A DNA stretch of 64,000 nt from Auanema rhodensis (lineage: Eukaryota > Animalia > Nematoda): contig OZ059900.1 of assembly GCA_964057225.1 (NCBI GenBank), positions 26,474,001 through 26,538,000 on the forward strand. Direction: 5' to 3'. Below, piece by piece: positions 22,788-62,600 of the stretch. The position numbers were made by a program, and so were the translations under genes. Each line of letters begins with the position of its first letter. Position 1 is the first letter of the stretch. The notes under the pieces are model-generated. The model was given only the letters and a program-made list of their open reading frames with translations, made no database searches and was not told the origin of the DNA.

Positions 22788-22789
22788 GG

Positions 22790-38600: not shown

Positions 38601-39200
38601 TTCTAGGACCAAAAATGAAAATTTTAGAATATTCAATTTTTCATAAAAATCGAACGAAATAGCAAGTTGAGCCCGCCGCAAAACATGATAAATGTGTTTC
38701 TGTGCTAACGAATTTTGTTTCATTGTTTTAATTGGCTAATTCTGAGTTGAATGAAATGTAGCACATTATTCTAGGACCAAAAATGAAAATTTTAGAATAT
38801 TTAATTTTTCATAAAAATAGAACGAAACAGCAAGTTGAGCCCGCCGCAAAACATGATAAATGTGTTTCTGTGCTAACGAATTTTGTTTCATTGTTTTAAT
38901 AGGCTAATTCTGAGTTGAATGAAATGTAGCACATTATTCTAGGACCAAAAATGAAAATTTTAGAATATTCAATTTTTCATAAAAATCGCACGAAATAGCA
39001 AGTTGAGCCCGCCGCAAAACATGATAAATGTGTTTCTGTGCTAACGAATTTTGTTTCATTGTTTTAATTGGCTAGTTCTGAGTTGAATGAAATGTAGCAC
39101 ATTATTCTAGGACCAAAAATGAAAATTTTAGAATATTCAATTTTTCATAAAAATCGAACGAAATAGAGTTGAGCCCGCCGCAAAACATGATAAATGTGTT
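26699..39200. repeat. 168-bp satellite array, block 2 (~74 monomers, including five strongly divergent variant monomers)
   Basis: Same monomer and orientation as block 1. Variant monomers containing GATATGGATATATACTTACAAAAAC start at 27101, 27773, 28781, 29957 and 31301. Confidence 0.99.
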
Positions 39201-39240
39201 AGTAGAGAGCCATGCCGAATTTACTAACCACGCCCCCAAA

Positions 39241-39376
39241 CAGTTGCTAAAAACATACTTTTGAGGGCGTCAGCTGCTAAAATCATACTTTTGGGGGCGT
39301 CAGCTGTCAAAATCATATTTTCGGCGTCAGCTGTCAAAATCATATTTTCGGCGTCAGCTGTCAAAAATATACTTTT
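39241..39376. repeat. Subterminal 27-30 bp tandem repeats (about 4.5 copies; mirrored at ~53401-53536)
   Basis: CAGCTG(C/T)(T/C)AAAATCATA(C/T)TTT..GGCGT units start at 39241, 39271, 39301, 39328 and 39355. Confidence 0.9.
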
Positions 39377-39769
39377 CCTCCCGAGGCAGGCTCTCGAGCC
39401 TGCGCATGGATCAAAACGCATGATTTTTTTTTTTAAAATTATTTTTTAATGTATTATTTTAAATGAATTTTTATTATTTATATATTTGTTAATTGTATTT
39501 GTAAATATTTTTAAACTTATTTCTTTTTAAATGTATTTTTAATATTTATATATATTTTAAATTGTATTTGTAAATATTATTATTTAATTGTTTCTTTTTA
39601 AATGTGTTTTTAATAATATTTCTTTTTAAATGTATTTTAATATTTATATATTTTTTAATTGTATGTTTAAAACTGAATAAATTATTTCTCATATATATTG
39701 TTTTTTATTTATTTAAATATTTTTAAAAGGTAATCAATATGTTCAGCGTACCTCTTATGGGTTAATCAA

Positions 39770-40595
39770 TGGAACTCATATCGAAGGTTAATTCGATAAG
39801 AACGATATGAAATACAAAAGTTAATGGAACACATATCGAAAGTTAATTCGATAAGAACGATATGAAATACAAAAGTTAATGGAACACATATCGAAGGTTA
39901 ATTCGATAAGATCGTTAAAACAGGTGCACTGACCCACACAAGAACCACATGGCAAACGTTTTGTTCATAAAAATATGATAAATAGCTGTACACCACATGT
40001 ACCAAGTTGTCTAATATTTTCAAATTACATGAAAGAATAGTTTAAAGAACCTTTTTTAAAATTTTATATTAGTATATTCTAATATACTAACTCAATAAAA
40101 CACATATCGAAGGTTAATTCGATAGGATTCACAAACAATTGTGTTGTTTCCAATGGAACACATATCGAAGATTAATTCGATAACATCGTTAAAACAGGTG
40201 CGCTGCCCCACACATGTACCACATGGCAAAAGTTTTGTTCATAAAAATATGATAAATAGCTGTACAGCACAAGTACCCATAACGCTAAAGAATACTTACT
40301 ATGCCAAGGGGTCATGGGTATATAGTTTTTAGTATCAAAAATGTTAATGGAACACATATCGAATATCAATTCGATAAGATTGGTGAAACAGATACGTTGA
40401 CCTACAATGAACCAAATGGCAAAGCACTTGTTCATTAAAGTATAACAAATAGCTGTATAGCATATGCATCAAGATTTCTAATATTCTCAAATTACTTGGA
40501 AAGAAGAGTATATAGAAAAAGTTTTAGTGTGTATATTACTAATATTCTAATACCCTAACTCAAAGAACACATATCGATGATTAATTCGATAAGAT
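39770..40595. repeat. Seven copies of the dyad motif TATCGAA-N6-TTCGATA within 55-bp and ~200-270-bp repeats (mirrored in the right TIR)
   Basis: Motif starts at 39779, 39834, 39889, 40105, 40163, 40357 and 40572 (last copy TATCGAT). Confidence 0.88.
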
Positions 40596-40825
40596 TGTTG
40601 AAACAGTTGCGCTGACCACAACAATACATGCGTATTTATTAACAGCGGATTGGCAACTGCTACTGTTGACAGCTGTAATATGATACAATGTTGAGTGTTG
40701 GCAACATTGTTACGTGACAATAAAACAACTGACTGTTCTTGCAATGAAGTGTAATATAAATGTGTAAAATGAAATATGGATAACTACCTCTCAGAGTTTG
40801 CATAATTTTATTCTAACAAGATACA

Positions 40826-41238
40826 ATGGCTGCTAACAGGTTGTGTTTTTTCCTATCTTTTTTTTTTTAATTAAAATATTTATTTTCAGTTATAAGCGTG
40901 TATGTGAAGAGTTGGGGTTCGATTATGAGGAAATTTATCAACTCAGGTAATTTAACAATATTTTTAAAATATACATCTTTTTTTTTAGTAAGCGCATAAA
41001 ACTTACCGAGAGTGGTGGTGTTGAGCTGTGTGACCCCGCAATAACCACTTCCAATAGTGGTCCCTCGTCATCAAGGGTTATTGAAGTTATCACCTTGGAT
41101 GACAGCGATAATGAGTAAGCTATCATATAATGAAAAAGCATGACATTTTTTTTCAGAGAATGGAATCCCGAGATGCCATCAACTAGTGGAGAACAATTAG
41201 GAGGCGGTTCATCCTTCAACGATGTTTGTCAAATAAAG
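40826..41238 (+). pseudogene. Duplicate of pPolB exons 1-4 inside the left TIR (orphan 5' gene fragment)
   Basis: Exons 40826-40839, 40890-40946, 40989-41114 and 41157-41238, with GT-AG introns of 50, 42 and 42 nt, splice to an open 93-codon frame MAANSYKRVCEELGFD...EQLGGGSSFNDVCQIK. Confidence 0.8.
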
Positions 41239-41439
41239 GTACGAGCTTTTAACCTTTTTTTTTTTCATGTTACAATTCTTTTCACTCTATATCTTTTATT
41301 TGATTACATATCTTGAGCAATTTTGAATTCTGCCATCTATTTTTAAACAAATCATCATACATTTGGTGGCTTTTTGAAAAATAAAATAAAATCTGATCCC
41401 AAATCCATGCCATAATATCATTTATTAAATTTTTATTCA

Positions 41440-42160
41440 TTAAAATACACTTAAATTTAAATATTTTGATGCTCAAAAACTGACACATTTAAATATTTTG
41501 TATTTTTCAAATCATTTCACTCCATCTCTTTTATTTAATTTCATATTTTAAACAATTTTAAATTTTTACCACTACTTTATAATTTTTATTTATTAAACTT
41601 TTTAATCATTAAATTACACTTAAATTTAAATATTTTGATGCGCAAAAACAGAAACATTTAAATATTTTGTTTTTTTTTTTTCTAAACCATTTCACTCCAT
41701 CTATATTAAACAATTTTATATTTCTACCACTATTTCATAATTTCATTTTTTAAATTTTTAATCATTAAAAAAACATTTAAATTTCAATATTGTGATGCTC
41801 AAAAACTGAAACATGTAATTGATTTATATTTTCTAAGCCATTTCACTTCATCTCTTTTATTTAATCACATATCTTGAACAAATTTAAATTTCTATCACTT
41901 TTTCATAATTTCGTTTATTAAATTTTTAATCACTAAAAAACATTTAAATTTCAATATTGTGATGCTCAAAAACTGAAACATTTAAATATTTTGTATTTTC
42001 TAAACCATTTCACTTCATCTCTTTTATTTATATATATTTTAAACAATTTTATAATTCTACTATTATTTAATTTTTATTTATTAAATTTTTAAACATTAAA
42101 AAAAAAAAAATTGATGCTCAAAAACTGAAACATTTAAATATTTTGTATTTTTCTAATCGT
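41440..42160. repeat. Degenerate ~150-170 bp AT-rich tandem repeat; its mirror copy lies in the long pPolB intron at ~50620-51340
   Basis: Core TGATGCTCAAAAACTGAAACATTTAAATATTTTG recurs near 41468, 41637, 41794, 41960 and 42113. Confidence 0.75.
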
Positions 42161-42347
42161 TTTGAAACAAACTAAACATATATTTGAAAACATTTCAATT
42201 AAATAAAAAAAAAATAACGACTATAACAAACAAAGAGACATAATAATTTTAAGCAAAAGATGAAACAATTCATATATATTCTTAAAACTATTTTTATTTA
42301 AACTTTTAAAAATAAAAATAAAAAAAAAAAAGCATGTAAACTGTTAA

Positions 42348-43019
42348 CGTTTTTCCAACAGAAAGTTTATTCTGCACTTGCCCAAAGGTAACTATGCAAA
42401 TGGTGATGAAATAATACGCGGAATCAATGCTGGAAAAGAACAATTTATTGCTAGCAGCACTAAACCTCTTGAAGCTGAGGAAGAAGCACGTATAAAGGGT
42501 TTGATAGATAAAGATGAAGATGTGAAAAAGTGGTATAATAATCGACAAGCTGAGGCTAAACTTGTCAAGGAAATGCTGGCAGACGCCACGTTTCGATTTA
42601 ACAAAACACTACAACGCATAGAGTTTGTAACAAGTAAGCGGCTATTATTGAATGCAACACTCGGTGATGCTCTCGCATATTTTCTTGGCTTTGAGAATAA
42701 AATTATCAACGACACGTTAATAGCCAGGCGCCCCATTGATTTTTCAAATAACATTAATACAATGTATATATATTGTGATATTGTAGAATATTCCATTCTC
42801 GGTAATGTGAAAGCTAATTTACTTGCATGTTTACCTGTACCACCTTCCACCGAATTTGGTAAAATGATTGCCAAAACATTTAATCCTATTCGTTATGTAC
42901 CAATCACTAAGCAAACACTCGATACTATACGTATTGAAATTTTAGATGAATTCGGCCGCCCTATGCAATTTAATTATGGTTCTACAGTTGTTACATTACA
43001 TGTTAAAAATGTGAAATAA
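42348..43019 (+). pseudogene. Minor capsid protein (penton/PX-like), 5'-truncated at the TIR boundary
   Basis: C-terminal pattern MYIYCDIVEYSILGN..ANLL...F.PIRYVP....IRIEILDEFGRP..F..G..VVTLH, typical of Polinton minor capsids. The frame opens right after a TAA at the TIR junction, with no N-terminal ATG. Confidence 0.8.
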
Positions 43020-43123
43020 ATGTTTTATTCAACAGTTATACAAGACCACATTACGATTTTCGAAGGTTTAAAAGGTAGTTCAGCGCCGTTTTGTTCGATG
43101 CGCGGCTCGTGTTGTGAATATTC

Positions 43124-43489
43124 TCAGTTACTATTGCAGCGGCATCGTTTTGGTTCGGTTGACTGTACAAACTCCTCAGTTTTTTCAGAGGGTTCGCTGG
43201 TATCATTTCCATCACCATCTTTACCATTCGTTCCATTACTATTATGAAGACGCCGAATATGACGCTGACAATTGAATCTTGTTCCAAAAGTTTCACTACA
43301 ATAAGGGCACAAACGTCTACGAACACCATCCAAATGTCCATATTTTTGAATAAAGTCAGCATTGCTGATATAACTGTTACATACGGGTTGAATCCCGTCA
43401 TGTCTTTTTAATACGTGATCACTAAAATGCTTGGCTGATGAAAATATTTCCTTGCACGTAACACAATACTTGTTACATAAAAGTTCCAT
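43124..43489 (-). CDS. Small protein with two C2H2 zinc fingers (~121 aa from ATG at 43489)
   Basis: YCVTCKEIFSSAKHFSDHVLKRH and LCPYCSETFGTRFNCQRHIRRLH; basic PKRCR near the C-terminus. Confidence 0.75.
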   Translation of the reverse strand: MELLCNKYCVTCKEIFSSAKHFSDHVLKRHDGIQPVCNSYISNADFIQKYGHLDGVRRRLCPYCSETFGTRFNCQRHIRRLHNSNGTNGKDGDGNDTSEPSEKTEEFVQSTEPKRCRCNSN

Positions 43490-43747
43490 TAGAGGAAAAT
43501 AAAAAACAACCACACACAGTCAACTCACTTTTATATAATGAGTGGAATAATGACTAGTGTTGTACAAAAGCCTAGTCCCAGAGATATTCCTTTAATGAAT
43601 GGCACTGAAATACGTTTCAAAATCTTTTTGTACAGGGGTGTTGGCACAGATTGTTCCAACGTGTATCTTATACATAATTCACAGTGACAGGGAATATTCA
43701 TAACTGACCACCTAATGTAGCAGGTGACGTTTTAATGGCGAGGTTGA

Positions 43748-44203
43748 TCATATGCTAGATAATTTATAGTCGAATACTTTATGCATAAACGCTTTAATAA
43801 AGACATCATCGTTTTGTAATAGTTTAAAAAATGAACAAATGCTTTCAAATGTATTACCAGCTGACAACATTAGTATTACAAATATTGCATAACCACCACA
43901 AGTGTATTCAATTATGCGTTGTGGTTTGCAAGTATTAACTTTTACATTTTTATATTTGGCCAGATAATGACGAATGTACTTGTTCATTTTATAACCCAAG
44001 CTACAGAAAAAGTAGGCTTGATCATTACGTACAAAGATGACTTGCCAATGTGTGCCCGGTTTATCGTGTGTGTCAGTATTTACAACAAGTGCAAAGTTCT
44101 TTCGACGTGTTTTGGGTAGAGTATCCGCGCTAAATACACCGAGGAATAGTTTTCGAGTGATGCGGACAGATCGCAATAGTGACGCTATTTCAGACGAATA
44201 CAT
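43748..44203 (-). CDS. Adenain-like (Ulp1/C5-type) cysteine maturation protease
   Basis: FLGVFSAD, VVNTD...PGTHW (catalytic His), FFCSLG, PQ....TCGGY (catalytic Cys). Confidence 0.92.
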   Translation of the reverse strand: MYSSEIASLLRSVRITRKLFLGVFSADTLPKTRRKNFALVVNTDTHDKPGTHWQVIFVRNDQAYFFCSLGYKMNKYIRHYLAKYKNVKVNTCKPQRIIEYTCGGYAIFVILMLSAGNTFESICSFFKLLQNDDVFIKAFMHKVFDYKLSSI

Positions 44204-44253
44204 TTAGTAAAATGATCTAGTGTAACTTTTGTATTGCGCACGTGCGGTTCAAT

Positions 44254-44706
44254 ATGCCACACCTCCTTCTAGACTTGAACTCAATTCAATGGACAACACT
44301 TTTGAATCAACAAATGGGTGGGGCGCCATTTAGTGGAATGATGTTTCAACGTGGTATGCAGAGAGGTCATGGCCTGGGTGGTATACTGGCAACATTGGCA
44401 TCGTTTTTACCACGCATTATTCAATCACCTATAGCCCAAAATCTCATCAATGCTGGAAGGAATGCATTATCCAGTGCTGTAAGCAATAGTCCAGTTCTAA
44501 ACTCACCTCTTGGCGGCCAGTTGCTAAAAACTAGCAATGAAATTGTTGATGGGGTGCTCAAGGGCGATAATATCAAGCAAACTCTTAAAACAGCCGGCCG
44601 GCAGGCTATACGAGATCTTACCGGTTTGGGCAAGCGGCGACGACGCAAAACCACAAAACCTCATAAGCGTCTGTGCATAACTCGTGAGCGGTCGTATCGT
44701 ATTTAA
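44254..44706 (+). CDS. Small Gly-rich/basic Polinton virion (core-like) protein, ~150 aa
   Basis: QRGHGLGGILATLASF motif of the kind found upstream of Polinton MCP genes; basic C-terminus KRRRRK; its TAA abuts the MCP ATG. Confidence 0.7.
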   Translation: MPHLLLDLNSIQWTTLLNQQMGGAPFSGMMFQRGMQRGHGLGGILATLASFLPRIIQSPIAQNLINAGRNALSSAVSNSPVLNSPLGGQLLKTSNEIVDGVLKGDNIKQTLKTAGRQAIRDLTGLGKRRRRKTTKPHKRLCITRERSYRI

Positions 44707-46041
44707 ATGGCTAAATTGATAGATTCAAAATCAGCACAAGCACTTTTACCTAATATTAATTATAGTGACATACCGGCGTCGGCATTAGGTGTTGAATCCA
44801 CTCGTACTGTACAAGTTCCTTTAAAAAATACTTTTCTTCCTCAAGGACCATGGGAATTTGTTATAGCCCAAAATTCCAAATCATTTCTTAATCTGAGAAG
44901 GTGTTGGTTGAATGTAAAATTCAAAATTGTAACCACAAACGGTGATCCAGTACCAGACAACCTTGTTTTTGCACCATGCCAACAATTTGCAGCCAGTTTG
45001 ATACACTCGTATCATTTAAAAATTGGTGATGTTAGCGTGTATGACTCTACCGTAAATCATGCCTACAAAACATATATTGAGAATATTCTAATGTATAGCA
45101 ACGATGTTAAAGAGAGCAAACTTGCCATATCAGGCTATCATGCGGATAGATATATAGATAATGCAGCCAGTCCTGGCTTTAGAGCGCGACAAGGGCTTGT
45201 TAAAAATGGCATATTGTGTGAGATGGCTGCTCCCATCAGTATCGACTTATTCAATCAGGAACGACTGTTTGTAAACTATTCAAAAATGGAGCTAACTGCA
45301 TATCCAAACCGTGATAATTTCTTAATTGACACACTTGGATGGAATAATGAAAGCAAGGATGCTGCAATGAAGGAGGAGTTTCCAAACCTGAAAATAGATA
45401 TCAACGATGTGCACTTGCTTATTCAAGAGTTTGATCTAAACGCTGGATTAGCTATGGCTATAGAAGATAAACTTGTAAAGGAACGAATACACTACCCCAT
45501 GACGTCAGTGAAAATGCGCTCTTATTTCATAGAAGGAGGCCGTTTGGATTCACCCAATAACATATTATTCACGTCGCATACACCGAAACGTGTTGTAGTA
45601 GGTCTTGTCGGCGCACACGCCTATAATGGTACTTTTAAACATTCGCCATTCAACTTTAAACCGTTTGAATTGAAAAATATATACTTGACGCTCAACAATC
45701 GGGTAATACCTACCCGCCCTTATAATTTAGAATGGCGTTCTTCCTATGCCACAGCATATATTGACATGTTGGAGGGTTTGGGTCTTGGTCGTACAGATTC
45801 ATCCAATGGTATTACACCAGCAATGTATAAAACCGGCTTCACATTTTTTGTATTTGATATTTCACCGACTGTACACTCGTCCGAGTTATTTGATGTTATA
45901 CGACAAGGTAATGTGGCCCTGAAATTGGAATTTGGTCAACAAACGCCGCAAGAGGGTTTATATGCTATTGTTTATGCAGAATATGACTCTATTCTTTCAA
46001 TTGACAACAATCGTGCTCCATATATTGATACCAGTTTGTAA
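44707..46041 (+). CDS. Major capsid protein (PY, double jelly-roll), 444 aa
   Basis: Size, position and motifs (GPWEF, HAYKTYIENIL, DLFNQERL, PKRVVVGLV...AYNG..KHSPFNF, GFTFFVFD, IVYAEYD) match Polinton MCPs. Confidence 0.9.
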   Translation: MAKLIDSKSAQALLPNINYSDIPASALGVESTRTVQVPLKNTFLPQGPWEFVIAQNSKSFLNLRRCWLNVKFKIVTTNGDPVPDNLVFAPCQQFAASLIHSYHLKIGDVSVYDSTVNHAYKTYIENILMYSNDVKESKLAISGYHADRYIDNAASPGFRARQGLVKNGILCEMAAPISIDLFNQERLFVNYSKMELTAYPNRDNFLIDTLGWNNESKDAAMKEEFPNLKIDINDVHLLIQEFDLNAGLAMAIEDKLVKERIHYPMTSVKMRSYFIEGGRLDSPNNILFTSHTPKRVVVGLVGAHAYNGTFKHSPFNFKPFELKNIYLTLNNRVIPTRPYNLEWRSSYATAYIDMLEGLGLGRTDSSNGITPAMYKTGFTFFVFDISPTVHSSELFDVIRQGNVALKLEFGQQTPQEGLYAIVYAEYDSILSIDNNRAPYIDTSL

Positions 46042-46179
46042 TGTATGTAATAAACTCTTTAAAACATTTGATGAGAAGAATAAAATTTATTAATACAACT
46101 ATACATAAAAATCTATAAATACAACCATATACAAATATACACGCGATAATAAAATTTATAAATTCAAATATATTAAAAA

Positions 46180-49100
46180 TTATTCACAATAACCATAGGG
46201 TAAAGTACTAAAATCGTCTAGATAACAAAGTTTATCCATTACGACCTTGGTACTCTTTGTCATGTCCATCGTGGATATGGCACCAAGCTGCCTCTTTAAT
46301 AACGTTGTTTTGGTTTTTAAAACCAATTTTTCTCCATCCATCACGAGTCCTCGAACCAATCGCTCCATACTTTGATAGTTTACCACGGTGGCTGCCGTGT
46401 GGTCCAGCGTCTGTAATTTTAAAAAGTTTCTCAATAATATATTTTTATACTTACCACTCCCTTTGCCTTGGTGATATACTTGACCTGACCAGCTGCATTT
46501 ACTAGCTCATAACTATAAACTTTTGCAGCTGGTGAAACAAATTTGGTCATTGACCAACCATCGGGTATTTCTGAGGTTAGTTTACCTAACCATTCACCCT
46601 TCATATCCTCAATTGGATCAGGCTGATCGAGGCATTTTAAATAAATTAGAGAATCGGTGTCTAAATGATGTACGTTTAAATTGTATACAAAGTATAAAAT
46701 TACCTGTATACACCAAGTTCTTTCCAATTTTTTCCATTGCCTTATACAATAGTAGCCTTGCATGAGCGGTTGTATAAGCCGCTATGGCTACATTTGTAAA
46801 CGGCGCTGGTGCCAGGTGTGAGTCTTCTGGCACTGTTGTACAGTACGCCACATCGTCCACAATTTTGAAGCCCGTGAGTTCCCTTGCAGGATCAGTTATG
46901 ATCCTACCAATTTCAGGATCCTCAACACCAATAATCTTGGTTTGGGCTTTATCCGGTCTTTGACCCATTTTACCCCATACACTATAAACAAATTTGTAAA
47001 TTTTTATTTTTAAAAGTTTACATACCTATTCAGCTGTAGTTTGGCAATGCTACGCATGGCCGCATTCTTTTCAATTTTGTTGCTCTCCAGAGCAACACCA
47101 GTGTTCTCCTCGTGCTCTTGGAGATATTTTAGCTGTAAAATTCTATTTAATGCCATACTTTTCATGACACATACCTTTTCAGCCTCTGTCATATTTGGCT
47201 TAGGCCAGCCCGATGCCTCTTGCTTAATTTTTATGTACTTTTGTACAAAATCCTTGAATAGGCCTCCTTGCTGCCATTCATCCCAGTGCCAAACCTCATA
47301 AACATGAAGCACTTTGTAGCCACGCTGTATGGCACATTCGAGCTCTACATGCGTTACAGTCAGATGCAGCTTTCGAGCGTCTTCATCATCTTGGTGCGGG
47401 CATGTTACATTTTTGCCTCTGTTTGCACATGTGCGGCAGTTTGTAAAAATTAATTTACCGCCTATGCGTGTTCCTAATACAGGATACAACAAATTTGTGG
47501 GTGCAAGCACGTCACATTTCACAAGGCCCTTGTATGGGCAGCATGCCTCAAAACTCTCAAAGCCCTCAGTAATCACTTTAGGATTACCCACAGGGTAATA
47601 GGCATCAAATGCCGTTACATATGGATAAAGTGAACAAAAGTCCACATACTCTAGTGAGTATCTATCCGAAGCTTGGGCCAAAAGCTTATATGTTTGAGTT
47701 CGGCCGCCGGTGAAGGCATCTCGAGGTGCCAATCGAGTTACAACCTCAGTGTCCTTCATAAAATTTGCCATTTGCTCATTTGATGACATTTGAGCAGTAA
47801 TTTCGTGTTCCCACACAGTGGTTACACTAATGCCCTGGCTTTGAATAGCCTCAAGCCTTTTCATGGTTTTTTCATAAACCTAAATGTTTCGGTTAAAAAT
47901 GATTTAAAAAAGTATTGGTTACCTCTTCCATTGTTTCACCATTTCTGCCTGGTGCAATAGCAGTCTTGTTGGTGCACTGGGGGCAACCATGATAAATACA
48001 GCCATTAAACTACAAAATTTTTCATTTTTTTTTACATTTATTACAAATTACTCACCTCATAGCCGTGATTAGCCACACTGTCATAAGCATCAAGTAGATA
48101 GCGTTGGCCATCTACTCGCACAACAAATTCACCACCATTAAGCTTATGCATTAATGGGCGGCCTAATCCGTGTTCTAGCCATTTAATGTATTTTATGGCA
48201 ATTATACTCTGCTTCTGGCCGGCATAATAACCAGTCTCAGGCAGAATACCCACTTGGTTCTCTTTAATGTGGTTCATTTTCAACTGTAATATACTAGTTT
48301 TGAAAATGCTTGTATTTTAAAAAAAAACTTGCCTGGAATAAAGAGAAACTGGCAAATGTCATACATTGTATGACAGGATTCCAGCCAGTGGTGGCGGTGG
48401 CCAACTTCATGTACACTTTCATACAGTTGGTTAAAATACGGACATCTGTCCTACAATATTCCAGAAGCTCCTCATCAAAATCAAACACACTTTGATTACG
48501 CTCCTCATACCAAATATTGAATGAAGCTAGGTCTTCTGCTTTCATTCTAGCAGTACAATAGTAATGCTTTGGTGGCAAGGATGGTAGCACTTTGCCATAA
48601 TTTATTGGGTGGTTAAAGAGGTATGGGAATTGTCCTTTACTCATATCAGGTACACCAAATGCCTTGGGTAACGCTGATAAGGGTAAAGGCACTAGTAAAT
48701 AACTATCTTTAAAACATAAATGGTTAATGTTTTGACCTCTTAAAGGCTTGACAACCATGCTAATAATCTTGGTCCCATTTAAAATGGGGTCAGGATATAT
48801 TCCACGGTTTATCAGCCTAGACACCAAGAAATGTATGTCAAAGCGCGACCCGTTGTGCGCAATCAAAATTGCATTATCATTCTCAGAAAAGTTGAGTAAC
48901 CAATCAAGGAAACGATCTGTTACAGACCATTCACTATCACCTTGTTGGTACCCAAAATGGCCCTCCTTGGTTGTGCATTTCTCACAGGAATTGGCATCTA
49001 TACAACTTTCACAAAATTTGTTATACACAACCATATTGGGCCATTGTTCATCTGCATATTCATGAACATTTGTGCCGTTTTTTAACACAACTGTTTCAAA

Positions 49101-51952
49101 GTCATAAAATATAATCTTAAACAAGTAAGCATTACACTTGTAAAGATGTTAAATACAAACCTTGAACTTTTCTTGCTTCTTTTTTAGCTGAGCCTTCTTC
49201 TTGTCGTTAGGTGGAACCCAACAACAAGAGTGCTCTTCAGGCTTTGTCTGACCGCACTTTTTGCAGAATTTTTCATTGCAATTGTGCGGTCTATCAGCAC
49301 GGACCATGTGATAGTGATCACACGCCACACATGTCTGAATTTAAGCTTGTTATGTACAACTTTAAATTTTCACAAAATACCTTGAATTTTCGGCAGGCTT
49401 TTCGCAAATGCCTATCGAAGCATTGTTGAGTTTTAAACAAAACTCTACAACTATCACACCTCACGCTACTCTCAACCACATTCCCCATCGCATTACAATT
49501 ATAGGTGTGGCATTTTTTACATTTGGCTTTACATCTATGCAACACTGTATTGTAAGATAACTTACAGTGTTGACATATAATACCATCAAAAATTTTCGAA
49601 CGACTACCAGCTGTAATACAATCATAGTGATTATTTCGGTAACCTAGTGTTACCAATTTGCTAGCCGCTTCATTAAATATTTTCTGGATAGTGTACATAC
49701 GCTGTCCAGGCGGTCTAGCATATACTACAAACTTATAGTTTGTATTACAGCTGGCAATAATGTTTAAATGAATTAAATTATAATTTGGTAAATCTACAGA
49801 AATACCACACCTATTTAATAAATTGATATGGTGTGGCTGATTTGGTAATAAGATGTAATTGCGACGAAGGTTTTGCAGCCTTCGCTTCTCATCGCCATCT
49901 TCAGTAGCCAACTCGTCAGCTTTCCACATTCCCACAACTGCTGATCTAGCCAGACAATGTGAGTCAGTGTTGGCAATGGTTCCAGGTATTTTGAGTTCGG
50001 GGTCAAAATAAAACCCGACTCTACCTTCACCAGGCATCAGGCTTGGCTGCGCTGGCCTTTCATCAAACACATACATCTCAATATTCATTGCCTGGCTGAT
50101 CACAGCCTCTCGTTTTGATTGCTGCACCTTGCTGATGGCATTCATAATGGCTACGCCATCCAGATGCTCCCTTCTACGAAAGTCCATAAATATGGAGCCC
50201 TTTTCAAAGGAAGGGTGCTCAATTGATAAACAAAATAAGGCTTTTTGCTTATCAGGCACACCGCTTTCAGCAAGACAACGATCAAGGAATTCGTTGAATA
50301 ACCGCGGCATGATAACATGCATTGGTTCATCAACATTTTCCAAGTGTGGGAACGTGAGCGATCGAACGACCACGTTGGTAAAACGACCGGTGCGTTTTAT
50401 GCGCCGGTGTGACCACTATAATAAACAACATTTATAACAGTTTACATGCTTTTTTTTTTTATTTTTATTTTTAAAAGTTTAAATAAAAATAGTTTTAAGA
50501 ATATATATGAATTGTTTCATCTTTTGCTTAAAATTATTATGTCTCTTTGTTTGTTATAGTCGTTATTTTTTTTTTATTTAATTGAAATGTTTTCAAATAT
50601 ATGTTTAGTTTGTTTCAAAACGATTAGAAAAATACAAAATATTTAAATGTTTCAGTTTTTGAGCATCAATTTTTTTTTTTTAATGTTTAAAAATTTAATA
50701 AATAAAAATTAAATAATAGTAGAATTATAAAATTGTTTAAAATATATATAAATAAAAGAGATGAAGTGAAATGGTTTAGAAAATACAAAATATTTAAATG
50801 TTTCAGTTTTTGAGCATCACAATATTGAAATTTAAATGTTTTTTAGTGATTAAAAATTTAATAAACGAAATTATGAAAAAGTGATAGAAATTTAAATTTG
50901 TTCAAGATATGTGATTAAATAAAAGAGATGAAGTGAAATGGCTTAGAAAATATAAATCAATTACATGTTTCAGTTTTTGAGCATCACAATATTGAAATTT
51001 AAATGTTTTTTTAATGATTAAAAATTTAAAAAATGAAATTATGAAATAGTGGTAGAAATATAAAATTGTTTAATATAGATGGAGTGAAATGGTTTAGAAA
51101 AAAAAAAACAAAATATTTAAATGTTTCTGTTTTTGCGCATCAAAATATTTAAATTTAAGTGTAATTTAATGATTAAAAAGTTTAATAAATAAAAATTATA
51201 AAGTAGTGGTAAAAATTTAAAATTGTTTAAAATATGAAATTAAATAAAAGAGATGGAGTGAAATGATTTGAAAAATACAAAATATTTAAATGTGTCAGTT
51301 TTTGAGCATCAAAATATTTAAATTTAAGTGTATTTTAATGAATAAAAATTTAATAAATGATATTATGGCATGGATTTGGGATCAGATTTTATTTTATTTT
51401 TCAAAAAGCCACCAAATGTATGATGATTTGTTTAAAAATAGATGGCAGAATTCAAAATTGCTCAAGATATGTAATCAAATAAAAGATATAGAGTGAAAAG
51501 AATTGTAACATGAAAAAAAAAAAGGTTAAAAGCTCGTACCTTTATTTGACAAACATCGTTGAAGGATGAACCGCCTCCTAATTGTTCTCCACTAGTTGAT
51601 GGCATCTCGGGATTCCATTCTCTGAAAAAAAATGTCATGCTTTTTCATTATATGATAGCTTACTCATTATCGCTGTCATCCAAGGTGATAACTTCAATAA
51701 CCCTTGATGACGAGGGACCACTATTGGAAGTGGTTATTGCGGGGTCACACAGCTCAACACCACCACTCTCGGTAAGTTTTATGCGCTTACTAAAAAAAAA
51801 GATGTATATTTTAAAAATATTGTTAAATTACCTGAGTTGATAAATTTCCTCATAATCGAACCCCAACTCTTCACATACACGCTTATAACTGAAAATAAAT
51901 ATTTTAATTAAAAAAAAAAAGATAGGAAAAAACACAACCTGTTAGCAGCCAT
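46180..51952 (-). CDS. Protein-primed family B DNA polymerase (pPolB), 14 exons, ~1370 aa predicted
   Basis: Introns at 51889-51938, 51790-51831, 51622-51663, 50416-51539, 49335-49380, 49116-49160, 48284-48332 (GC-AG), 48010-48055, 47880-47922, 47133-47174, 46982-47025, 46661-46703 and 46411-46454 give one continuous frame. It contains ExoI YDFET, ExoII HNGSRFD, ExoIII YCRTDV, Vsr-like EFNGCIYHGC, motif A DFCSLYP, motif B KLQLNSVWGKMGQ, motif C YTDTDS and C-terminal LPYGY. Confidence 0.9.
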
Positions 51953-53576
51953 TGTATCTTGTTAGAATAAAATTATGCAAACTCTGAGAGGTAGTTATCC
52001 ATATTTCATTTTACACATTTATATTACACTTCATTGCAAGAACAGTCAGTTGTTTTATTGTCACGTAACAATGTTGCCAACACTCAACATTGTATCATAT
52101 TACAGCTGTCAACAGTAGCAGTTGCCAATCCGCTGTTAATAAATACGCATGTATTGTTGTGGTCAGCGCAACTGTTTCAACAATCTTATCGAATTAATCA
52201 TCGATATGTGTTCTTTGAGTTAGGGTATTAGAATATTAGTAATATACACACTAAAACTTTTTCTATATACTCTTCTTTCCAAGTAATTTGAGAATATTAG
52301 AAATCTTGATGCATATGCTATACAGCTATTTGTTATACTTTAATGAACAAGTGCTTTGCCATTTGGTTCATTGTAGGTCAACGTATCTGTTTCACCAATC
52401 TTATCGAATTGATATTCGATATGTGTTCCATTAACATTTTTGATACTAAAAACTATATACCCATGACCCCTTGGCATAGTAAGTATTCTTTAGCGTTATG
52501 GGTACTTGTGCTGTACAGCTATTTATCATATTTTTATGAACAAAACTTTTGCCATGTGGTACATGTGTGGGGCAGCGCACCTGTTTTAACGATGTTATCG
52601 AATTAATCTTCGATATGTGTTCCATTGGAAACAACACAATTGTTTGTGAATCTTATCGAATTAACCTTCGATATGTGTTTTATTGAGTTAGTATATTAGA
52701 ATATACTAATATAAAATTTTAAAAAAGGTTCTTTAAACTATTCTTTCATGTAATTTGAAAATATTAGACAACTTGGTACATGTGGTGTACAGCTATTTAT
52801 CATATTTTTATGAACAAAACGTTTGCCATGTGGTTCTTGTGTGGGTCAGTGCACCTGTTTTAACGATCTTATCGAATTAACCTTCGATATGTGTTCCATT
52901 AACTTTTGTATTTCATATCGTTCTTATCGAATTAACTTTCGATATGTGTTCCATTAACTTTTGTATTTCATATCGTTCTTATCGAATTAACCTTCGATAT
53001 GAGTTCCATTGATTAACCCATAAGAGGTACGCTGAACATATTGATTACCTTTTAAAAATATTTAAATAAATAAAAAACAATATATATGAGAAATAATTTA
53101 TTCAGTTTTAAACATACAATTAAAAAATATATAAATATTAAAATACATTTAAAAAGAAATATTATTAAAAACACATTTAAAAAGAAACAATTAAATAATA
53201 ATATTTACAAATACAATTTAAAATATATATAAATATTAAAAATACATTTAAAAAGAAATAAGTTTAAAAATATTTACAAATACAATTAACAAATATATAA
53301 ATAATAAAAATTCATTTAAAATAATACATTAAAAAATAATTTTAAAAAAAAAATCATGCATTTTGATCCATGCGCAGGCTCGAGAGCCTGCCTCGGGAGG
53401 AAAAGTATATTTTTGACAGCTGACGCCGAAAATATGATTTTGACAGCTGACGCCGAAAATATGATTTTGACAGCTGACGCCCCCAAAAGTATGATTTTAG
53501 CAGCTGACGCCCTCAAAAGTATGTTTTTAGCAACTGTTTGGGGGCGTGGTTAGTAAATTCGGCATGGCTCTCTACT
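50435..53576 (-). repeat. Right terminal inverted repeat (~3142 bp); carries the native pPolB 5' exons and upstream region
   Basis: Reverse complement of 39201-42346, with only a couple of visible SNPs and homopolymer length differences. Confidence 0.96.
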
Positions 53577-56211
53577 TGTGTTTCTGTGCTAACGAATTTT
53601 GTTTCATTGTTTTAATTGGCTAATTCTGAGTTGAATGAAATGTAGCACATTATTCTAGGACCAAAAATGAAAATTTTAGAATATTCAATTTTTCATAAAA
53701 ATAGAACGAAACAGCAAGTTGAGCCCGCCGCAAAACATGATAAATGTGTTTCTGTGGTAACGAATTTTGTTTCATTGTTTCAATTGGCTAATTCTGAGTT
53801 GAATGAAATGTAGCACATTATTCTAGGACCAAAAATGAAAATTTTAGAATATTTAATTTTTCATAAAAATCGAACGAAACAGCAAGTTGAGCCCGCCGCA
53901 AAACATGATAAATGTGTTTCTGTGCTAACGAATTTTGTTTCATTGTTTTAATTGGCTAATTCTGAGTTGAATGAAATGTAGCACATTATTCTAGGACCAA
54001 AAATGAAAATTTTAGAATATTTAATTTTTCATAAAAATAGAACGAAACAGCAAGTTGAGCCCGCCGCAAAACATGATAAATGTGTTTCTGTGGTAACGAA
54101 TTTTGTTTCATTGTTTTAATTGGCTAATTCTGAGTTGAATGAAATGTAGCACATTATTCTAGGACCAAAAATGAAAATTTTAGAATATTCAATTTTTCAT
54201 AAAAATCGCACGAAATAGCAAGTTGAGCCCGCCGCAAAACATGATAAATGTGTTTCTGTGCTAACGAATTTTGTTTCATTGTTTTAATTGACTAATTCTG
54301 AGTTGAATGAAATGTAGCACATTATTCTAGGACCAAAAATGAAAATTTTAGAATATTTAATTTTTCATAAAAATCGAACGAAATAGCAAGTTGAGCCCGC
54401 CGCAAAACATGATAAATGTGTTTCTGTGCTAACGAATTTTGTTCCATTGTTTAAATTGGCTAATTCTGAGTTGAATGAAATGTAGCACATTATTCTAGGA
54501 CCAAAAATGAAAATTTTAGAATATTTAATTTTTCATAAAAATCGAACGAAGCAGCAAGTTGAGCCCGCCGCAAAACATGATAAATGTGTTTCTGTGCTAA
54601 CGAATTTTGTTCCATTGTTTTAATTGACTAATTCTGAGTTGAATGAAATGTAGCACATTATTCTAGGACCAAAAATGAAAATTTTAGAATATTCAATTTT
54701 TCATAAAAATCGAACGAAATAGCAAGTTGAGCCCGCCGCAAAACATGATAAATGTGTTTCTGTGCTAATGAATTTTGTTTCATTGTTTTAATTGGCTAAT
54801 TCTGAGTTGAATGAAATGTAGCACATTATTCTAGGACCAAAAATGAAAATTTTAGAATATTTAATTTTTCATAAAAATCGAACGAAATAGCAAGTTGAGC
54901 CCGCCGCAAAACATGATAAATGTGTTTCTGTGCTAACGAATTTTGTTTCATTGTTTTAATTGACTAATTCTGAGTTGAATGAAATGTAGCACATTATTCT
55001 AAGACCAAAAATGAAAATTTTAGAATATTTAATTTTTCATAAAAATCGAACGAAATAGCAAGTTGAGCCGGCCGCAAAACATGATAAATGTGTTTCTGTG
55101 CTAACGAATTTTGTTCCATTGTTCAAATTGGCTAATTCTGAGTTGAATGAAATGTAGCACATTATTCTAGGATCAAAAATGAAAATTTTAGAATTATTAA
55201 TTTTTCATAAAAATCGAACGAAACAGCAAGTTGAGCCCGCCGCAAAACATGATAAATGTGTTTCTGTGCTAACGAATTTTGTTTCATTGTTTTAATTGGC
55301 TACTTCTGAGTTGAATGAAATGTAGCACATTATTCTAGGACCAAAAATGAAAATTTTAGAATATTTAATTTTTCATAAAAATCGAACGAAATAGCAAGTT
55401 GAGCCCGCCGCAAAACATGATAAATGTGTTTCTGTGCTAACGAATTTTGTTTCATTGTTTTAATTGGCTAATTCTGAGTTGAATGAAATGTAGCACATTA
55501 TTCTAGGACCAAAAATGAAAATGTTAGAATATTCAATTTTTCATAAAAATCGAACGAAATAGCAAGTTGAGCCCGCCGCAAAACATGATAAATGTGTTTC
55601 TGTGCTAACGAATTTTGTTTCAATTGTTTTAATTGACTAATTCTGAGTTGAATGAAATGTAGCACATTATTCTAGGACCAAAAATGAAAATTTTAGAATA
55701 TTTAATTTTTCATAAAAATCGAACGAAATAGCAAGTTGAGCCCGCCGCAAAACATGGTAAATGTGTTTCTGTGCTAACGAATTTTGTTTCATTGTTTTAA
55801 TTGGCTAATTCTGAGTTGAATGAAATGTAGCACATTATTCTAGGACCAAAAATGAAAATTTTAGAATATTCAATTTTTCATAAAAATCGAACGAAATAGC
55901 AAGTTGAGCCCGCCGCAAAACATGATAGATGTGTTTCTGTGCTAACGAATTTTGTTTTATTGTTTTGATTGGCTAATTCTGAGTTGAATGAAATGTAGCA
56001 CATTATTCTAGGACCAAAAATGAAAATTTTAGAATATTTAATTTTTCATAAAAATCGAACGAAATAGCAAGTTGAGCCCGCCGCAAAACATGATAAATGT
56101 GTTTCTGTGCTAACGAATTTTGTTTCATTGTTTTTATTGACTAATTCTGAGTTGAATGAAATGTAGCACATTATTCTAGGACCAAAAATGAAAATTTTAG
56201 AATATTTAATT
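53577..56211. repeat. 168-bp satellite array, block 3 (~15.7 monomers)
   Basis: Resumes in register after the Maverick TSD and shares rare variants (GAGCCGGCCG, GCTACTT) with block 2. Confidence 0.99.
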
Positions 56212-56610
56212 TGTAATATCCTTAAGTTGGATATTAATATTCCATGATTGACCCTTAGATTGATGTGTTGTAAAAGAAACAATAAGATTTGAGGAAGAGA
56301 GAAAGATTTATTATAAATAAAAAACATTTAAACAATAAACAAATAAAGATAAAGATAAGTCCGCCAACTGAAGATTCAGTTGAATGGCAAGCTTATATAG
56401 CGAATGTTATCAGCATTTTCCACGAAAGGTTATAAGTTGTCAATGACAATTATAACTATCTCAGAAAATGCTGAGGCTGCAAAATATAACTGATAACATA
56501 ATACACTAAGACAAGAAACTAGAATTATAAAATATAAAATATAAAACACAGAATAAAGAAATACATAAAAATTATAGAAAGAATAAAGTAAAGAATTATA
56601 AAGTATAACA
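56212..56610 (-). repeat. Putative 3' LTR (~399 bp) of element 2
   Basis: On the - strand it reads TGTTATA...TATTACA, starts 57 bp after the pol stop, and has a TATA-like CTATATAAG (~56392-56400) and AATAAA (~56308-56313). The partner LTR is outside the window, so the inner boundary is inferred. Confidence 0.75.
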
Positions 56611-56667
56611 TGCTACCGCTCTTGAAGTCCTGTGTCCTCACAGGTATGCATAATGTTTCCAAAATTT

Positions 56668-59600
56668 TCATAATGTTGCAGCAAGCTTTTTGATGAGATC
56701 CTTATGTACTTTTCTCATCTTTCCTTGACTCATTTCCAATTCCACATATGAGTTGTATACGCCTGTAATTTTGAACGGTCCATTATAAGTGGGTCGCAAT
56801 TTGCCGTGAACCGTCATATCCTTCAATAATACCATTTCACCTATTTCAAATATACGTGATGCTATTCGGTTACTATTATTCAGCCGATTTTGTTGTTCAA
56901 TTGATTTTAATTGAATTTTTTCTTGAATAGAATCCCAGGTATTTTTCCGGTTCTCATTTCTTTCCAATAATTCGTCATCTTCAGGAGAATTTAGATGAGG
57001 TTGTCCTGGTAATTGACGGTCCATAGGTAGGCGTGCGTCTCTTCCAAATAAAGCAATGTATGGGCTGATTCCGGTAGTTGTACTTGGGATTGTATTTAAC
57101 GCGAATGTGATTTTAGGTAATTGTGAGGCCCATTGAGAGACACGGTTTTCAGCACAAGTGGATAAACATTCCTGGATGGTTCGATGTAGTCGTTCCACTT
57201 GACCGTTTGTATTTTTGTGATATGGCAGAGAGAAGGTTTGTACAATTCCAAATTCGTTGCACATTAACTTGAATTCTTTAGATATAAAATTTCCTCCATT
57301 GTCAGACACGATGCTCACTGGTGGTCCAAAAATGAAGACGAAATTCGTCAGGAACTTTCGGACTGTTTCTTCGGCATTCTGTGTGCGTAAAGGTATGCTC
57401 GTTATCCATTTTGAAAAAGCATCTTGAATAGAAAGAATATATTTAAATCCATTAGTGCTAGGGGAAAAAGGTCCTGTCACATCCATATGAATCCTATCAA
57501 ATGGTTTTTGTGGGGTAACAAACTTTCCATATGGTTCTCTCGTTGTATCATGTTGATTTATTTTCCTTTTTGCGCATGTCAGGCATTGGCTGACGATCTC
57601 TTTCGCATCTTCCATCATATTTGTCCAATGGAATCTTCTTGATAATGCTGCATGTGTTCTTTTGATTCCTTGATGCGCTCCAATTCTTGCGTCTTCATGA
57701 AAAAGTTTCGCAAGTACTTGATTCAATGTCTTTTGTTTTGGAATCATAATCCTTGGAGAAAGATATTGTTTGTTAGGTCGAGCATGCAAAACTCCGTCGA
57801 TAACAATATATCTATCGCTATTAATCTGTTTAGGTTGTTCCGTTAACATATCAGCAATAGTTTCCTTAATCCATGGTGTTCCTTGTTGTAACTGAATTAG
57901 TTTGTCGGTATCCAGAGTTTCCACATTGGTTACATTTATGAGATAGTTGATGGTTTCTTGGATATCCGTTAAACTTGTTGTTAGCGTTGTCTTCTGTAGC
58001 TTCGGTTTAGGACCATCGTTAGCTTCGTTGCCTATGTATCTGGATAGTGCATCACATACACTATTCATACGTCCTGGACGGTACATAATCACAATATCAT
58101 ATTCCTGGATCATTAACTGATATTTCGCTAGTCTTCCAATAAGATCTCTTCTACTCATTAGACTGGTTAGTGGTCGATGATCCGTTATTAGCTTAGTTGA
58201 CGTGCCTAAAACATATGTGCGAAATTGTTGTAATGCGTAGACGAGTGCCAAAGCTTCTAATTCGATAGGTGGGTATTTTCTTTCTGTAGGTGAGAGCTTC
58301 CTACTTGCGAACGCAACAGGGTGTAATCCATTTCCTGTATCTTGTAGTAAGACTGCTCCAATTGCAATAGTACTAGCGTCACTTTCAATAACAAAAGGTG
58401 CTCCATTTGTTGGTGGCTTCAGAACTGGTGCTGTGCATAGAGCTTTCTTGAGAGTCTCGAATGCTTTTTCACGTTCTTCCGTCCATTCGAAATCTTGATC
58501 CTTGTGTGTGAGTTGATACAACGGTTCGGCTATTTTGGCGTAGTCTCTGATGAATCGCCGAAAATAATTTGTCATTCCAAGGAATGAACGAATAGCGGTG
58601 ACCGTTTTGGGAGTTGGAAATTTCTTAACGGCTGTAATTTTTGATGGATCAGGTTGTATTCCATCACGACCAATTATAAATCCAAGAAATTTAACTTGTG
58701 TAGCTGCAAATTTGCATTTACTTAGTTTTGCTTTCATTCCTAATCCTTGTAAAGCTTGTAACACTTCTTCTATATCCTCCAGATGTTGTTCAGCTGTGTT
58801 TGATATAATGAGTAGATCATCCAGATAAACAAAAAGTCGACATTTTACTTGATTTTGCAAATAGCGAACAGCTGATTGAAATGTATGTGGAGCTCCACAG
58901 AGACCCATCGGCATTCTGCAATATTGATAAACTCCTGATGAGGTCACAAATGCAGTGAGGTGACGGTCTTCTTCACGTAAAGGAATTTGAAAAAATCCCG
59001 ATACGAGATCGATGTTTGTGAAGTATCGAGCTCCTGCAGTGCTGTCGATTATTTCTGGTATATGAGGAATAGAATAAGTCTGTTTCTGTGTGACACTATT
59101 GAGTGCACGGAAGTCCGTTACAAAGCGGAATGAGTTGTCTTTCTTCTTGACTAAGACGACTGGACTTGTAAAACTTGATGTTGATGTTTCTATTACTCCT
59201 TGGTCCAGCATTTCTTTTACTTGACGTTCAACTTCATCCTGTTTACCCAAAGGAACTCGATATGATCGAGATTTGGGCAGGTCCATATCGGTTCTCAAAG
59301 TGATTGAATGTTCTATTGGTCCTTTGAATAATCCAATGTTCCGATCTTCGTTAAAAAAAGCATTTTTGAATCTTCTCAACATAGTTTTGAGATTTTGACG
59401 TTGATTTTTAGATAGATCCGTTGATTCGAAATTTAAGTTATCGAAAGGATTCTTCTCAAAAATAGGCAATTTATCTGACCAATCAGCTTCTGGTGGAATA
59501 TAGTCCGGTATATGTGGGATTCCAATTTCTTCTGCTATTTTTCCTTTTCCAATAATGGTGTTTCCTGTTAACTTCACCTCATAATTTGCTGTATTGATGG

Positions 59601-62600
59601 CGAATATTGTGAGTGGTGAAGTCTTGATAGCAGTAGGTGTGAATTGAATAGGTCCATTTCCACATCGTATAAGAGCGTATTGTTTTGGTTGTAGTTCTTT
59701 TGCCAATTGTAGACGAATCATAGCTTTAGTTCGGGGTGGAATAATAGATTCTCTAATGTTTATAATTGAAACGGTGTCTGAACTGATGCGAAAGCTCTTC
59801 TGGTTAGCGGATAATAATGGTAGAAAATGGTTTCCAACTATTAATTGCTTGCGTAGAGCTTGTAGAGAAGTTGTTATTCCTTTTTCTTCTAATGCTTTCA
59901 TGATGTCCAAACCAAGTAACATTTCAGTAGGACAATGTTTATCCTCAGAGATTAAAAATGTGTGTGAAAGATGGTATCCAGCAATAACAATGTCCAACGT
60001 TATTGTACCCAGAAAGTTGAATATTGATCCATTTGCTGCGGTGGCAGAGATTTTAGTTGAGTTGAAATTCTCTTTTCCTAAATAGCGTACTGATGATTCC
60101 TTCAAATATGAAACAGATGCTCCGCTATCCCATAAAGCTACGAGTCCTCTGCCTTCTGCTTCAATTCTTATATATGGGAGTTCTCTTTTGTTCGTTGCAC
60201 AGCATCCAACAAAAGGTATAATAATAGGAATAAAAGTGATGACAGTAGGAAAATATCTTCGAATAGTTTCGTCGTCGGCTGGAACATCGATGTCAGCGTT
60301 GAGTAGTTCGTGTTGTTCAACTGCATTCACATTTAAGATAGGAACTTTCTCTTTGATATAAGATACAACAATAATGTATAATGCTGATCCAAAGATTAAT
60401 ATAACTATCATAACACCTGCAGAGATAAACATTCTGTTGAGGGATCCAGCAAAGAAATCAACTCCTCGTTCCCATAGTGATGATGCAATATTTTGAGTAG
60501 AACTAAAAAGTTCGTTACTTTTTGTAAACCATTCTGATAAGCCTGGCAAATTCGCTTGATTCGTGATAACTCGTAGAAAATTTCTATGAGGATTGGTAGC
60601 GAAAATGTGTCCATATGTTAGGCTTATTGTTCTAACTAAGTTTTCATCGGTGATATTTTCATAAAGATTTCTTTGTGAAAATCGAATGGCTGCTAGATCG
60701 GGATACTGATCTGAACCAATGTTTAAAGCAATTACGTTTGTAACTCCGTTGAAGGATTTCCATTCTCCATCCTCTTTCCATATATCATTTTCTACTGTTT
60801 CACATGGAATTTCAGTTCCATATGCTTCCAAATCTGCTGAATCTTGAGGTGCAAAGTAGAGGCGGTCATCATCCGTGATGACGGGTGTTTCTAAATAACA
60901 CTTATCTTTGTATGTGTGGTTGCGATAAATGTGAATTGGTTCTATTGGCTGACAGGTTGAAACCCGAATAAGATTCCGTCCAATTATTCGAGCCACTATA
61001 TCATCTCGTTGCATAATAGATCTGATAGCAATCGTAGGATTGATATTAAATATAGCTTGCCATGTCTTAATAAGTTCAAGTTGAGCATGACATATGCTGT
61101 GATGTTGATGATGAAATTCTTCGACCAGTATGGTTCTCATTCGTTCAAATCCATAGTTGAGTTTGTTGATGGTAGTTAATGCATCTCGATGTCGAAGTAT
61201 AGTATTCTGGTGATCTGTTAAGTGAGTGCCGAATAATTCTTGAGCTTTCTCTATGCTTCCAATCATGGGTTGCATTGATGTCATCCCTTGAATAGTACTA
61301 ATTGTTTGTTTTGTAGTAGATGATGTATTTACAACAGGTTTTGAGGTAGCACTAAGAAATCGTGCAGTTGGTGTAGTTTTAGTGGTGATAGAGCGACTGA
61401 ATACTCTTTTTGTAATCTCTTCAGGTGCTGGTTTTGAAAACCATGACATTAAATCAGTTAATTGTTTAGCGTCAATATTGATGTTACGGCTGTAGAGATC
61501 TTCTTTATTCGAAGGCATCGGTATTCCAAAAATGGTTTCTCGGTTTCTGAGTGTCCAGTTATCCAACAGCTTTAATTTCATTTCATATACTTGATCTTTC
61601 ACTTGTCGTTGCATAAAATGACTATGAAAGAACAGTTTCATTCGATAATATTCTATCAGTTGAGGTTGAGAATACTGATAGCGTAGTTCACGAAGTAATT
61701 CTTTTGCTTTATATACCACAGAACGTGGATCTCCAAATGTGAAGTTGAGATGGTTTTGATATACTGTGAATATCAAAAATTCGAGTGGTGGCACATATTC
61801 TGTTTCGGATAAGATTGCAGGTATTTGTATCAATTCCCATAATTTATCTCTTGCAACCGAAATTGTAGAATTGCCTGGTTTAACTATTCTTTTTATATAA
61901 TTGATAGGAAGTCGGTGTGCTAGTTGACCGATGACAAAACTAGGCTCCATTTGTTCGATCCACATTTTTGTAATCATCTTGCTTTCTTCTCCTCCTAGAG
62001 CATGTAGTAAGAGAATATTCGGATCGCGGAAGTCTTTTAAATTTGCCCAGTAATCTATAGTATGATCAGTAATGTTCAAAATATGGACAGCTGACAGCAA
62101 AAATTGATGATATCGAGCAATAACAGTCAGGTTCTGATATTCGTTGCTAACTGATTGATAGTGATACCAGTTATGAATATATCGTATGGTATTTCCGCCA
62201 GACGTGACAGTATATCTAGCAAACGGTAGATCCAATATTTGAATAGGAGTTAACTTATATTCCATTTCTGAGCGAAATGACGCAATTAAGGATGAATTTG
62301 TTGAACGTTTATAGCGTTGGCGTGAAGGATCCATTTGATTATCCAAATAACTTGTTAGATCCAGTAAAGAATATGCATGCGGATAATCAATAAACGAGAC
62401 AAGAGTCTCAGTAGTGGATTCGAAAATTGGTGAAGAAAAACAAGATTGAGTTGTAGTAGATGCTGAGGTGTTGGCTAAGACAAGTGCTGTTTCTAGACTT
62501 GATATTAGCAGTGTTTGATCTCCAAGTATTCCATACAGAGGTCCAATACGTGTGTATTGGCATGGTGCTCGGGGTGTGGGTGGTTTCCAAACTACTGAAC

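Follow-up and report, generated by a model that had tools for sequence, protein, structure and literature searches.

The mobile elements closest to the one described here are the Mavericks, or Polintons, of nematodes, which usually carry an integrase, a packaging ATPase and a fusogen. Their other hallmarks are a protein-primed DNA polymerase (pPolB), a protease, a double jelly-roll capsid protein, a minor-capsid-type gene, a small conserved open reading frame (ORF), terminal inverted repeats (TIRs) and a 6-bp target-site duplication (TSD). The accessible portions of the nematode reports (Jeong et al., PMC10748475, bioRxiv 10.1101/2023.08.22.554363; Widen et al., bioRxiv 10.1101/2022.07.12.499685) state a size of 13-25 kb and, in the former (bioRxiv 10.1101/2023.08.22.554363), TIRs of 100-1,500 bp; the table of Jeong et al. 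gives 15-18.5 kb for Heterorhabditis Polintons. For vertebrate Mavericks, the part available of Barreat and Katzourakis (PMC8097293) describes an AGT-type terminus, a 6-bp TSD and a core gene set and, for intact elements, TIRs of 46-1,447 bp and an absence of introns. Here we describe a Maverick element of 14.4 kb from the nematode Auanema rhodensis, located at 39201-53576 of a 64,000-nt stretch of contig OZ059900.1 (assembly GCA_964057225.1; positions 26,474,001 to 26,538,000), hereafter the window. Its size falls within the stated nematode range; it shares with the nematode elements all the hallmarks listed after the fusogen, the protease and the minor-capsid-type gene being probable assignments, and with the vertebrate elements the terminus, the TSD and the core gene set. 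Its TIRs, however, span 3,146 alignment columns, outside the nematode range and roughly double the largest value published for animal elements, it has predicted introns unlike the vertebrate elements, and integrase, ATPase and fusogen are all absent. The element looks real and is best described as a young, non-autonomous Maverick derivative made by end replacement.

Alignment of the two ends by blastn revealed that the left arm (39201-42346, plus strand) repeats, in inverted orientation, the 3.14 kb at the right end (50435-53576, minus strand), which is taken as the template end. Read as 39201-42346 against 53576-50435, the arms are 99.809% identical over 3,146 columns, out to the terminal base, and the identity stops sharply at 42346/50435. 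They differ by two substitutions (39417/53360 and 40125/52653) and by four one-base gaps, all of them in homopolymer runs and with the left arm the longer in four of four. The right arm contains exons 1-4 of pPolB (51952-51540) and positions 51539-50435 of intron 4, that is 1,105 of the 1,124 nt of this intron, which ends at 50416, and on this side the gene reads on into the remainder of an open, predicted pPolB. In the left arm the same exons are present as mirror copies (about 40827-41240), together with the greater part of intron 4, and the arm meets the original core at 42346/42347, inside a minor-capsid-type gene (42347-43019, plus strand) whose remaining ORF lacks about 60 N-terminal codons. 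This ORF aligned with five of five homologs only from about residue 62 of the homologs, and the 58 residues at their N-termini gave no match below E 0.24 in the window. An earlier, sequence-only reading of this DNA had described nearly identical TIRs of about 3.14 kb, the first pPolB exons and most of intron 4 within them, and an abrupt left-hand stop in the minor capsid gene, and the alignments bear it out on each count.

Further repeats lie within the arms. The segment 39768-40600 and its mirror contain a 55-bp tandem repeat, a 27-bp tandem repeat and one motif in seven copies. The substitution at 40125 sets the left arm apart from the six other copies and is therefore one that arose on the left arm. 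The left copy of intron 4 contains a 167-bp tandem repeat of 4.6 copies (41411-42156); a relationship to the 168-bp satellite in which the element lies was rejected, the alignment score being 29 against a shuffled mean of 27, with 63 of 200 shuffles reaching 29. The left arm also places a second copy of the predicted first exons of pPolB (40827-42365, plus strand) upstream of the truncated capsid-type ORF, and a chimeric transcript, or a hairpin RNA formed from the mirrored arms, is possible from this arrangement.

Both termini of the element are exact inverted copies beginning AGTAG, and the hexamer TGTGTT is found as a direct repeat on both sides, at 39195-39200 within the 168-bp satellite and at 53577-53582 (both plus strand). 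Ends of the AG/AGT type and a TSD of 5-8 bp, by which Polintons/Mavericks are recognised, are both present. Excision in silico of the element with one TSD copy left exactly 168 nt between the satellite landmarks, i.e. one restored unit, in agreement with the claim that termini and TSD are intact. The satellite has the identical orientation on both flanks; compared with the reverse complement of the right flank, the left flank showed 211 mismatches in 300 and is not an inverted copy of it. Units identical to those of the right flank were found in the adjacent left block for 6 of 13 units (35 neighbour units), and among distant units for 1 of 13 (60 units) and 1 of 13 (55 units). Satellite phase, flank orientation and unit matching together indicate that the insertion site looks like one real locus. 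They argue against an assembly artefact, in which the right arm would have been placed to the left of a full-length copy through chimerism in a long read or faulty resolution of a repeat: a simple fold-back would have inverted the flank, and the exact phase and the fit of the right-flank units to the adjacent left block do not suit a misplacement. We regard such an artefact as improbable; what speaks for it is taken up below with the contigs.

Eleven listed public sequencing runs, from three studies, contain the stretch, and six of them were compared in detail (X1, X2, X3, X6, X9 and X13). The junction was examined in the contigs of X1, X2, X3 and X6, excluding the poly-A run at 42298-42338, and the results refer to the pieces listed. 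Two records from X1 and two from X3 begin to match the window exactly at 42347 and are preceded by 158-159 letters of other sequence, one record of each pair showing zero mismatches to the window, and a record from X2 has 43 letters of other sequence ahead of 42347. In X1 and X3 the bin 42344-42357 reaches exactly 11/14 of the next bin, showing that cover begins at 42347. The depth at the end of intron 4, as far as contig depth can serve as a rough measure, was 156.5 against 178.3 in the matching core in X1, 457.1 against 454.4 in X3 and 1987.5 against 2095-2301 in X2, about 1:1 and not 2:1. The sequence ahead of 42347, which is not that of the TIR, and the 1:1 depth indicate that other members of the family do not have 3-kb TIRs, and the present copy is therefore a rearranged derivative and not a member of a natural long-TIR family. 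Intact members sharing the 3-kb TIRs, the outcome against which the sequence-only reading had warned, were not encountered.

A family in which 3-kb TIRs are natural, the first exons are common to pPolB and the capsid-type gene and an integrase was never carried is thus already largely refuted by the contig sequence ahead of 42347, and we consider it very improbable. An AG acceptor does lie 15 nt past the left-hand junction, in a position similar to that on the right, and the accessible part of one report attributes TIRs of hundreds to thousands of bp to protist Polinton-like viruses (PMC12220804). The best acceptor (ending at 42361) is, however, out of frame with the capsid ORF, on which ground a shared-exon fusion by design was rejected; the in-frame AGs are poor (a weak one ends at 42365), and all five capsid-type homologs carry the extra N-terminus.

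The contigs further revealed that the family is polymorphic and that its variants coexist. A contig of X1 (depth 31.8) joins 43884 to 47816 and represents another, internally deleted member. At seven coding sites all the listed contigs read a base other than that of this copy, and six of the seven differences, among the sites listed, are synonymous. The origin of the copy therefore lies in a selected sub-lineage or strain not represented by these contigs.

Inspection of the element confirmed the claim that no ORF for integrase, packaging ATPase or fusogen is present. Positions 42347-50418 are taken up by six genes separated by 0-258 nt, leaving the core without room for an integrase, and the longest stop-free frame in the TIR has 98 codons. 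Two retroelement integrase queries, with no Maverick integrase among them, gave a best E of 1.5 against the window (control pair 8e-32). The Walker A motif (GxxxxGK[ST]) of a packaging ATPase occurred 0 times in six frames, a motif that introns could split and for which no Maverick ATPase query was used. No frame or space was found for the 866-aa gene of a glycoprotein-B-like fusogen, for which no homology search was made. Related loci were found neither in viral contigs nor, beyond three distant short ones, in metagenomes, and none of these three extends to an integrase or ATPase; the left-hand gene content of the parent is accordingly drawn from the published nematode elements only. For C. 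elegans, the portion available of PMC11414722 gives a TIR of 744 bp and 10 loci with pPolB and TIR and without integrase, and among the 266 elements in the supplement of Jeong et al. two lack the integrase, four lack the ATPase and none lacks both, under a filter that favours nearly complete elements.

As the origin of this structure we favour, at a probability of roughly 0.45, a copy-back template switch during protein-primed strand-displacement replication followed by helper integration. We infer every step of this route beyond the structure itself. A strand begun at the right terminus would stop at 42347, re-prime at 50435 in intron 4 and copy back to the terminus, one non-homologous switch being enough. 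The resulting panhandle, with two right-end origins, would be replicated to a linear duplex, and the integrase of a helper copy would insert this duplex into the satellite with a new 6-bp TSD. The product would have both origins and an open pPolB, major capsid and protease, its own integration and packaging having been lost; on account of the doubled right-end origin and the open polymerase, it could outpace its helper in replication.

Several observations are consistent with this route. Both ends of the element derive from one terminus and essential genes have been lost, as in a copy-back defective genome. Adenoviruses repair their ends by way of a panhandle. Polinton pPolBs possess a terminal-protein domain for protein priming, according to the accessible part of PMC11161782, and the coexistence of variants in a polymorphic family makes helpers plausible. 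The copy shows no decay, its pPolB, major capsid and protease frames being open; together with the six of seven synonymous differences, the open frames suggest, weakly, that the insertion is about as young as the arms with their two substitutions. A similar age of insertion and arms is what would be expected, again weakly, had the arms formed at or before insertion.

The same arms could also have been produced by repair in place. An integrated full-length copy would have been broken on the left, by a break or fork collapse, and the end of its short left TIR would have copied the right TIR, either its own or that of a sister or another copy, 3.1 kb inward before being end-joined at 42347. Such repair would keep the old TSD and make a helper or free form unnecessary, and only a single copy is known, its junction occurring in none of the four runs. 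End joining accords with a blunt or near-blunt joint, and the derivative in X1 indicates that such elements rearrange. Repair in place requires, on the other hand, a homologous switch, a non-homologous join and the loss of several kb, and, as a weak point, a core with hardly any neutral decay would have to be older than the arms. We consider it a serious possibility that agrees with the findings nearly as well as the copy-back route, if at less than even odds.

A published model for repair of this kind exists for Galileo, in which internal sequence is recruited into the TIRs and the longest TIRs occur in non-autonomous copies; in the portion of Marzo et al. available (PMC3573991), internal sequence beside one TIR is found again, in inverted orientation, at the opposite end of TIR-extended, non-autonomous copies, as it is here. 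Galileo, however, moves by cut-and-paste, its extensions measure a few hundred bp and its TIRs reach at most about 1.26 kb (PMC3573991), whereas the present element has duplicated coding exons and has retained a self-replicating polymerase. The same source, in its accessible part, states that the inverted repeats of Polintons, too, have been reported to expand in this way, and cites other works including Jurka et al. 2007.

Ends that both stem from one terminus are familiar from the copy-back defective-interfering genomes of RNA viruses, the panhandle end repair of adenoviruses, the terminal duplications of poxviruses and arm replacement in Streptomyces. Copy-back defective genomes and linear replicons with replaced ends share with the present element the two ends from one terminus, the loss of the genes of the other end and the longer terminal repeat. 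Those systems, however, are seen as replicating molecules, while here there is one integrated copy. A search by title or abstract start, within open-access literature, found no description of an arm-replaced or copy-back Polinton, and the accessible part of PMC6431247 makes no mention of palindromic forms.

A number of results weigh against the copy-back route with helper integration. The junction 42346/42347, which the sequence-only reading had proposed to look for at other loci, occurred in the contigs of none of the four runs, with depth 0 at 42330-42343 in four of four; the left arm consequently lacks independent support, and the contigs give no indication of spread, amplification or interference. 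A record from X9 continues unbranched for 184 letters beyond 50434, and, with the missing junction, nothing indicates mobilisation after the rearrangement. Only one copy with this junction is known and no free linear form has been observed. The joint shows no clear microhomology (by eye, in one minor X2 contig, an overlap of 0 bases, or of 2 bases with an extra base), and repair in place yields the identical sequence and TSD. The absence of the junction from every contig would also suit an assembly artefact, as would the arm differences, four of six being one-base homopolymer gaps in one direction, the type of error made by long reads.

Two of these points are tempered by other findings. The contigs lack the synonymous alleles of this copy as well, and a missing junction is therefore expected if the copy is private or was pruned; contigs drop rare variants, which bears on the count of none in four. 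A small overlap, or none, at the joint favours neither the copy-back route nor repair in place. Of the origin proposed by the sequence-only reading, the overwriting of one end by the other stands, the copies diverging at 42347 with an intron-4 end at about 1:1 depth, whereas the extrachromosomal switch and the defective-interfering nature of the product do not follow, since repair in place gives the same product. We put forward, as a tentative proposal with the balance somewhat against it, that a copy-back defective genome, made on free linear DNA by the protein-primed polymerase of the element and reintegrated by a helper, has been fossilised here.

The pPolB gene (46180-51952, minus strand) is predicted to comprise 14 exons and 13 introns and to encode an open frame of 1,370 codons, splicing being predicted from sequence, frame and phase. 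It matches PF03175 with E values of 2.9e-22 and 5.6e-17, and the exonuclease and polymerase motifs were located in the predicted exons. Twelve of the predicted introns are GT-AG and one is GC-AG, and every exon is stop-free in its inherited phase. Twelve introns have 42-50 nt and one has 1,124 nt; short introns with TTTTCAG-type acceptors, such as these, correspond to the nematode consensus. Autonomous Polintons/Mavericks as published have intronless core genes, and the 13 predicted introns of this pPolB set the present element apart from them. The portion of Widen et al. available (bioRxiv 10.1101/2022.07.12.499685) describes a complete C. plicata element whose core genes are likewise intronless, in contrast to the pPolB described here, and one circular Maverick scaffold.

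An exhaustive search with exon 5 retrieved 104 relatives, and 34 matches start within the first 40 residues of this exon. At least 25 residues are present upstream in 21 of these 34, and the motif Q-x-G-[GSA], as in exon 4, occurs there in 5 of 21 (background 3 of 316 windows). The frame continuity and this upstream motif in relatives support the predicted assignment of exons 1-4 to pPolB. Neither a word-index search for long pPolB relatives nor a PDB sequence search with one polymerase exon gave any match. No RNA run was listed for the stretch, an outcome that has no bearing on expression. Run X13, which may be RNA (a guess), contains scattered short pieces only; in one of its records a loose end of 17 letters behind 48008 is similar to the adjacent end of exon 8 (window 48008-48056). 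This is a weak hint that intron 8 was skipped, and the same record keeps intron 9.

Among the other core genes, the major capsid gene (44707-46041, plus strand) gave a structural model with a predicted local distance difference test (pLDDT) score of 77.8, whose top Foldseek matches were Sputnik (3j26, E 9.4e-16), PBCV-1 and mavirus; the modelled protein thus matches the double jelly-roll type. It is preceded by a small ORF (44254-44706, plus strand) which, from its likeness by eye to positions 864-1337 of the related locus L001, is likely the conserved Polinton uncharacterised ORF (puORF/PW). A putative adenain-type maturation protease is found at 43748-44203 (minus strand; PF00770, E 0.0013, 18.9 bits against a cut-off of 21.3) and a small C2H2 zinc-finger ORF at 43124-43489 (minus strand; PF13894, E 6.2e-06, narrowly missing the curated cut-off). 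The truncated ORF at 42347-43019 gave a low-confidence fold model with no match at E <= 0.001 and a few minor capsids among the weak matches, and its probable assignment to the minor-capsid type rests on homology and gene position. In L001 an ORF resembling it, by eye, stands ahead of the small ORF and the capsid gene, and the closest named homolog found is from Auanema (42%).

The satellite array extends over 1-56212 of the window and has received three recent insertions within 40 kb; it is possibly a centromere-like or heterochromatic safe haven. A literature search for a 168-bp AluI satellite of Heterorhabditis bacteriophora gave no papers. One of them is a Ty3/gypsy-type long terminal repeat (LTR) retroelement inserted in the satellite at 19616-26698 (plus strand), whose two frames (20112-22787 and 22775-26335) hold gag-protease and pol; three substitutions and a 117-nt gap separate its LTRs. 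The satellite also contains another LTR retroelement at 56213-64000 (minus strand), with a frame of 2,313 codons in which, read by eye, an apparent envelope-like region lies upstream of protease, reverse transcriptase and integrase.

In the accessible parts of the literature, the idea that animal Mavericks replicate as free linear DNA figures as a hypothesis and not as an observation (PMC8097293; bioRxiv 10.1101/2022.07.12.499685). If the copy-back origin is true, a fossil copy-back genome would be a sequence record of extrachromosomal panhandle replication and would back helper/defective dynamics; the single sharp junction makes free replication testable, without answering the question. Surveys that require an integrase or five core genes, as in the filter described in the available portion of bioRxiv 10.1101/2023.08.22.554363, would overlook such elements. 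A family that is polymorphic across three studies, with a polymerase gene that is rich in predicted introns and yet open, is a useful system for the study of Maverick activity.

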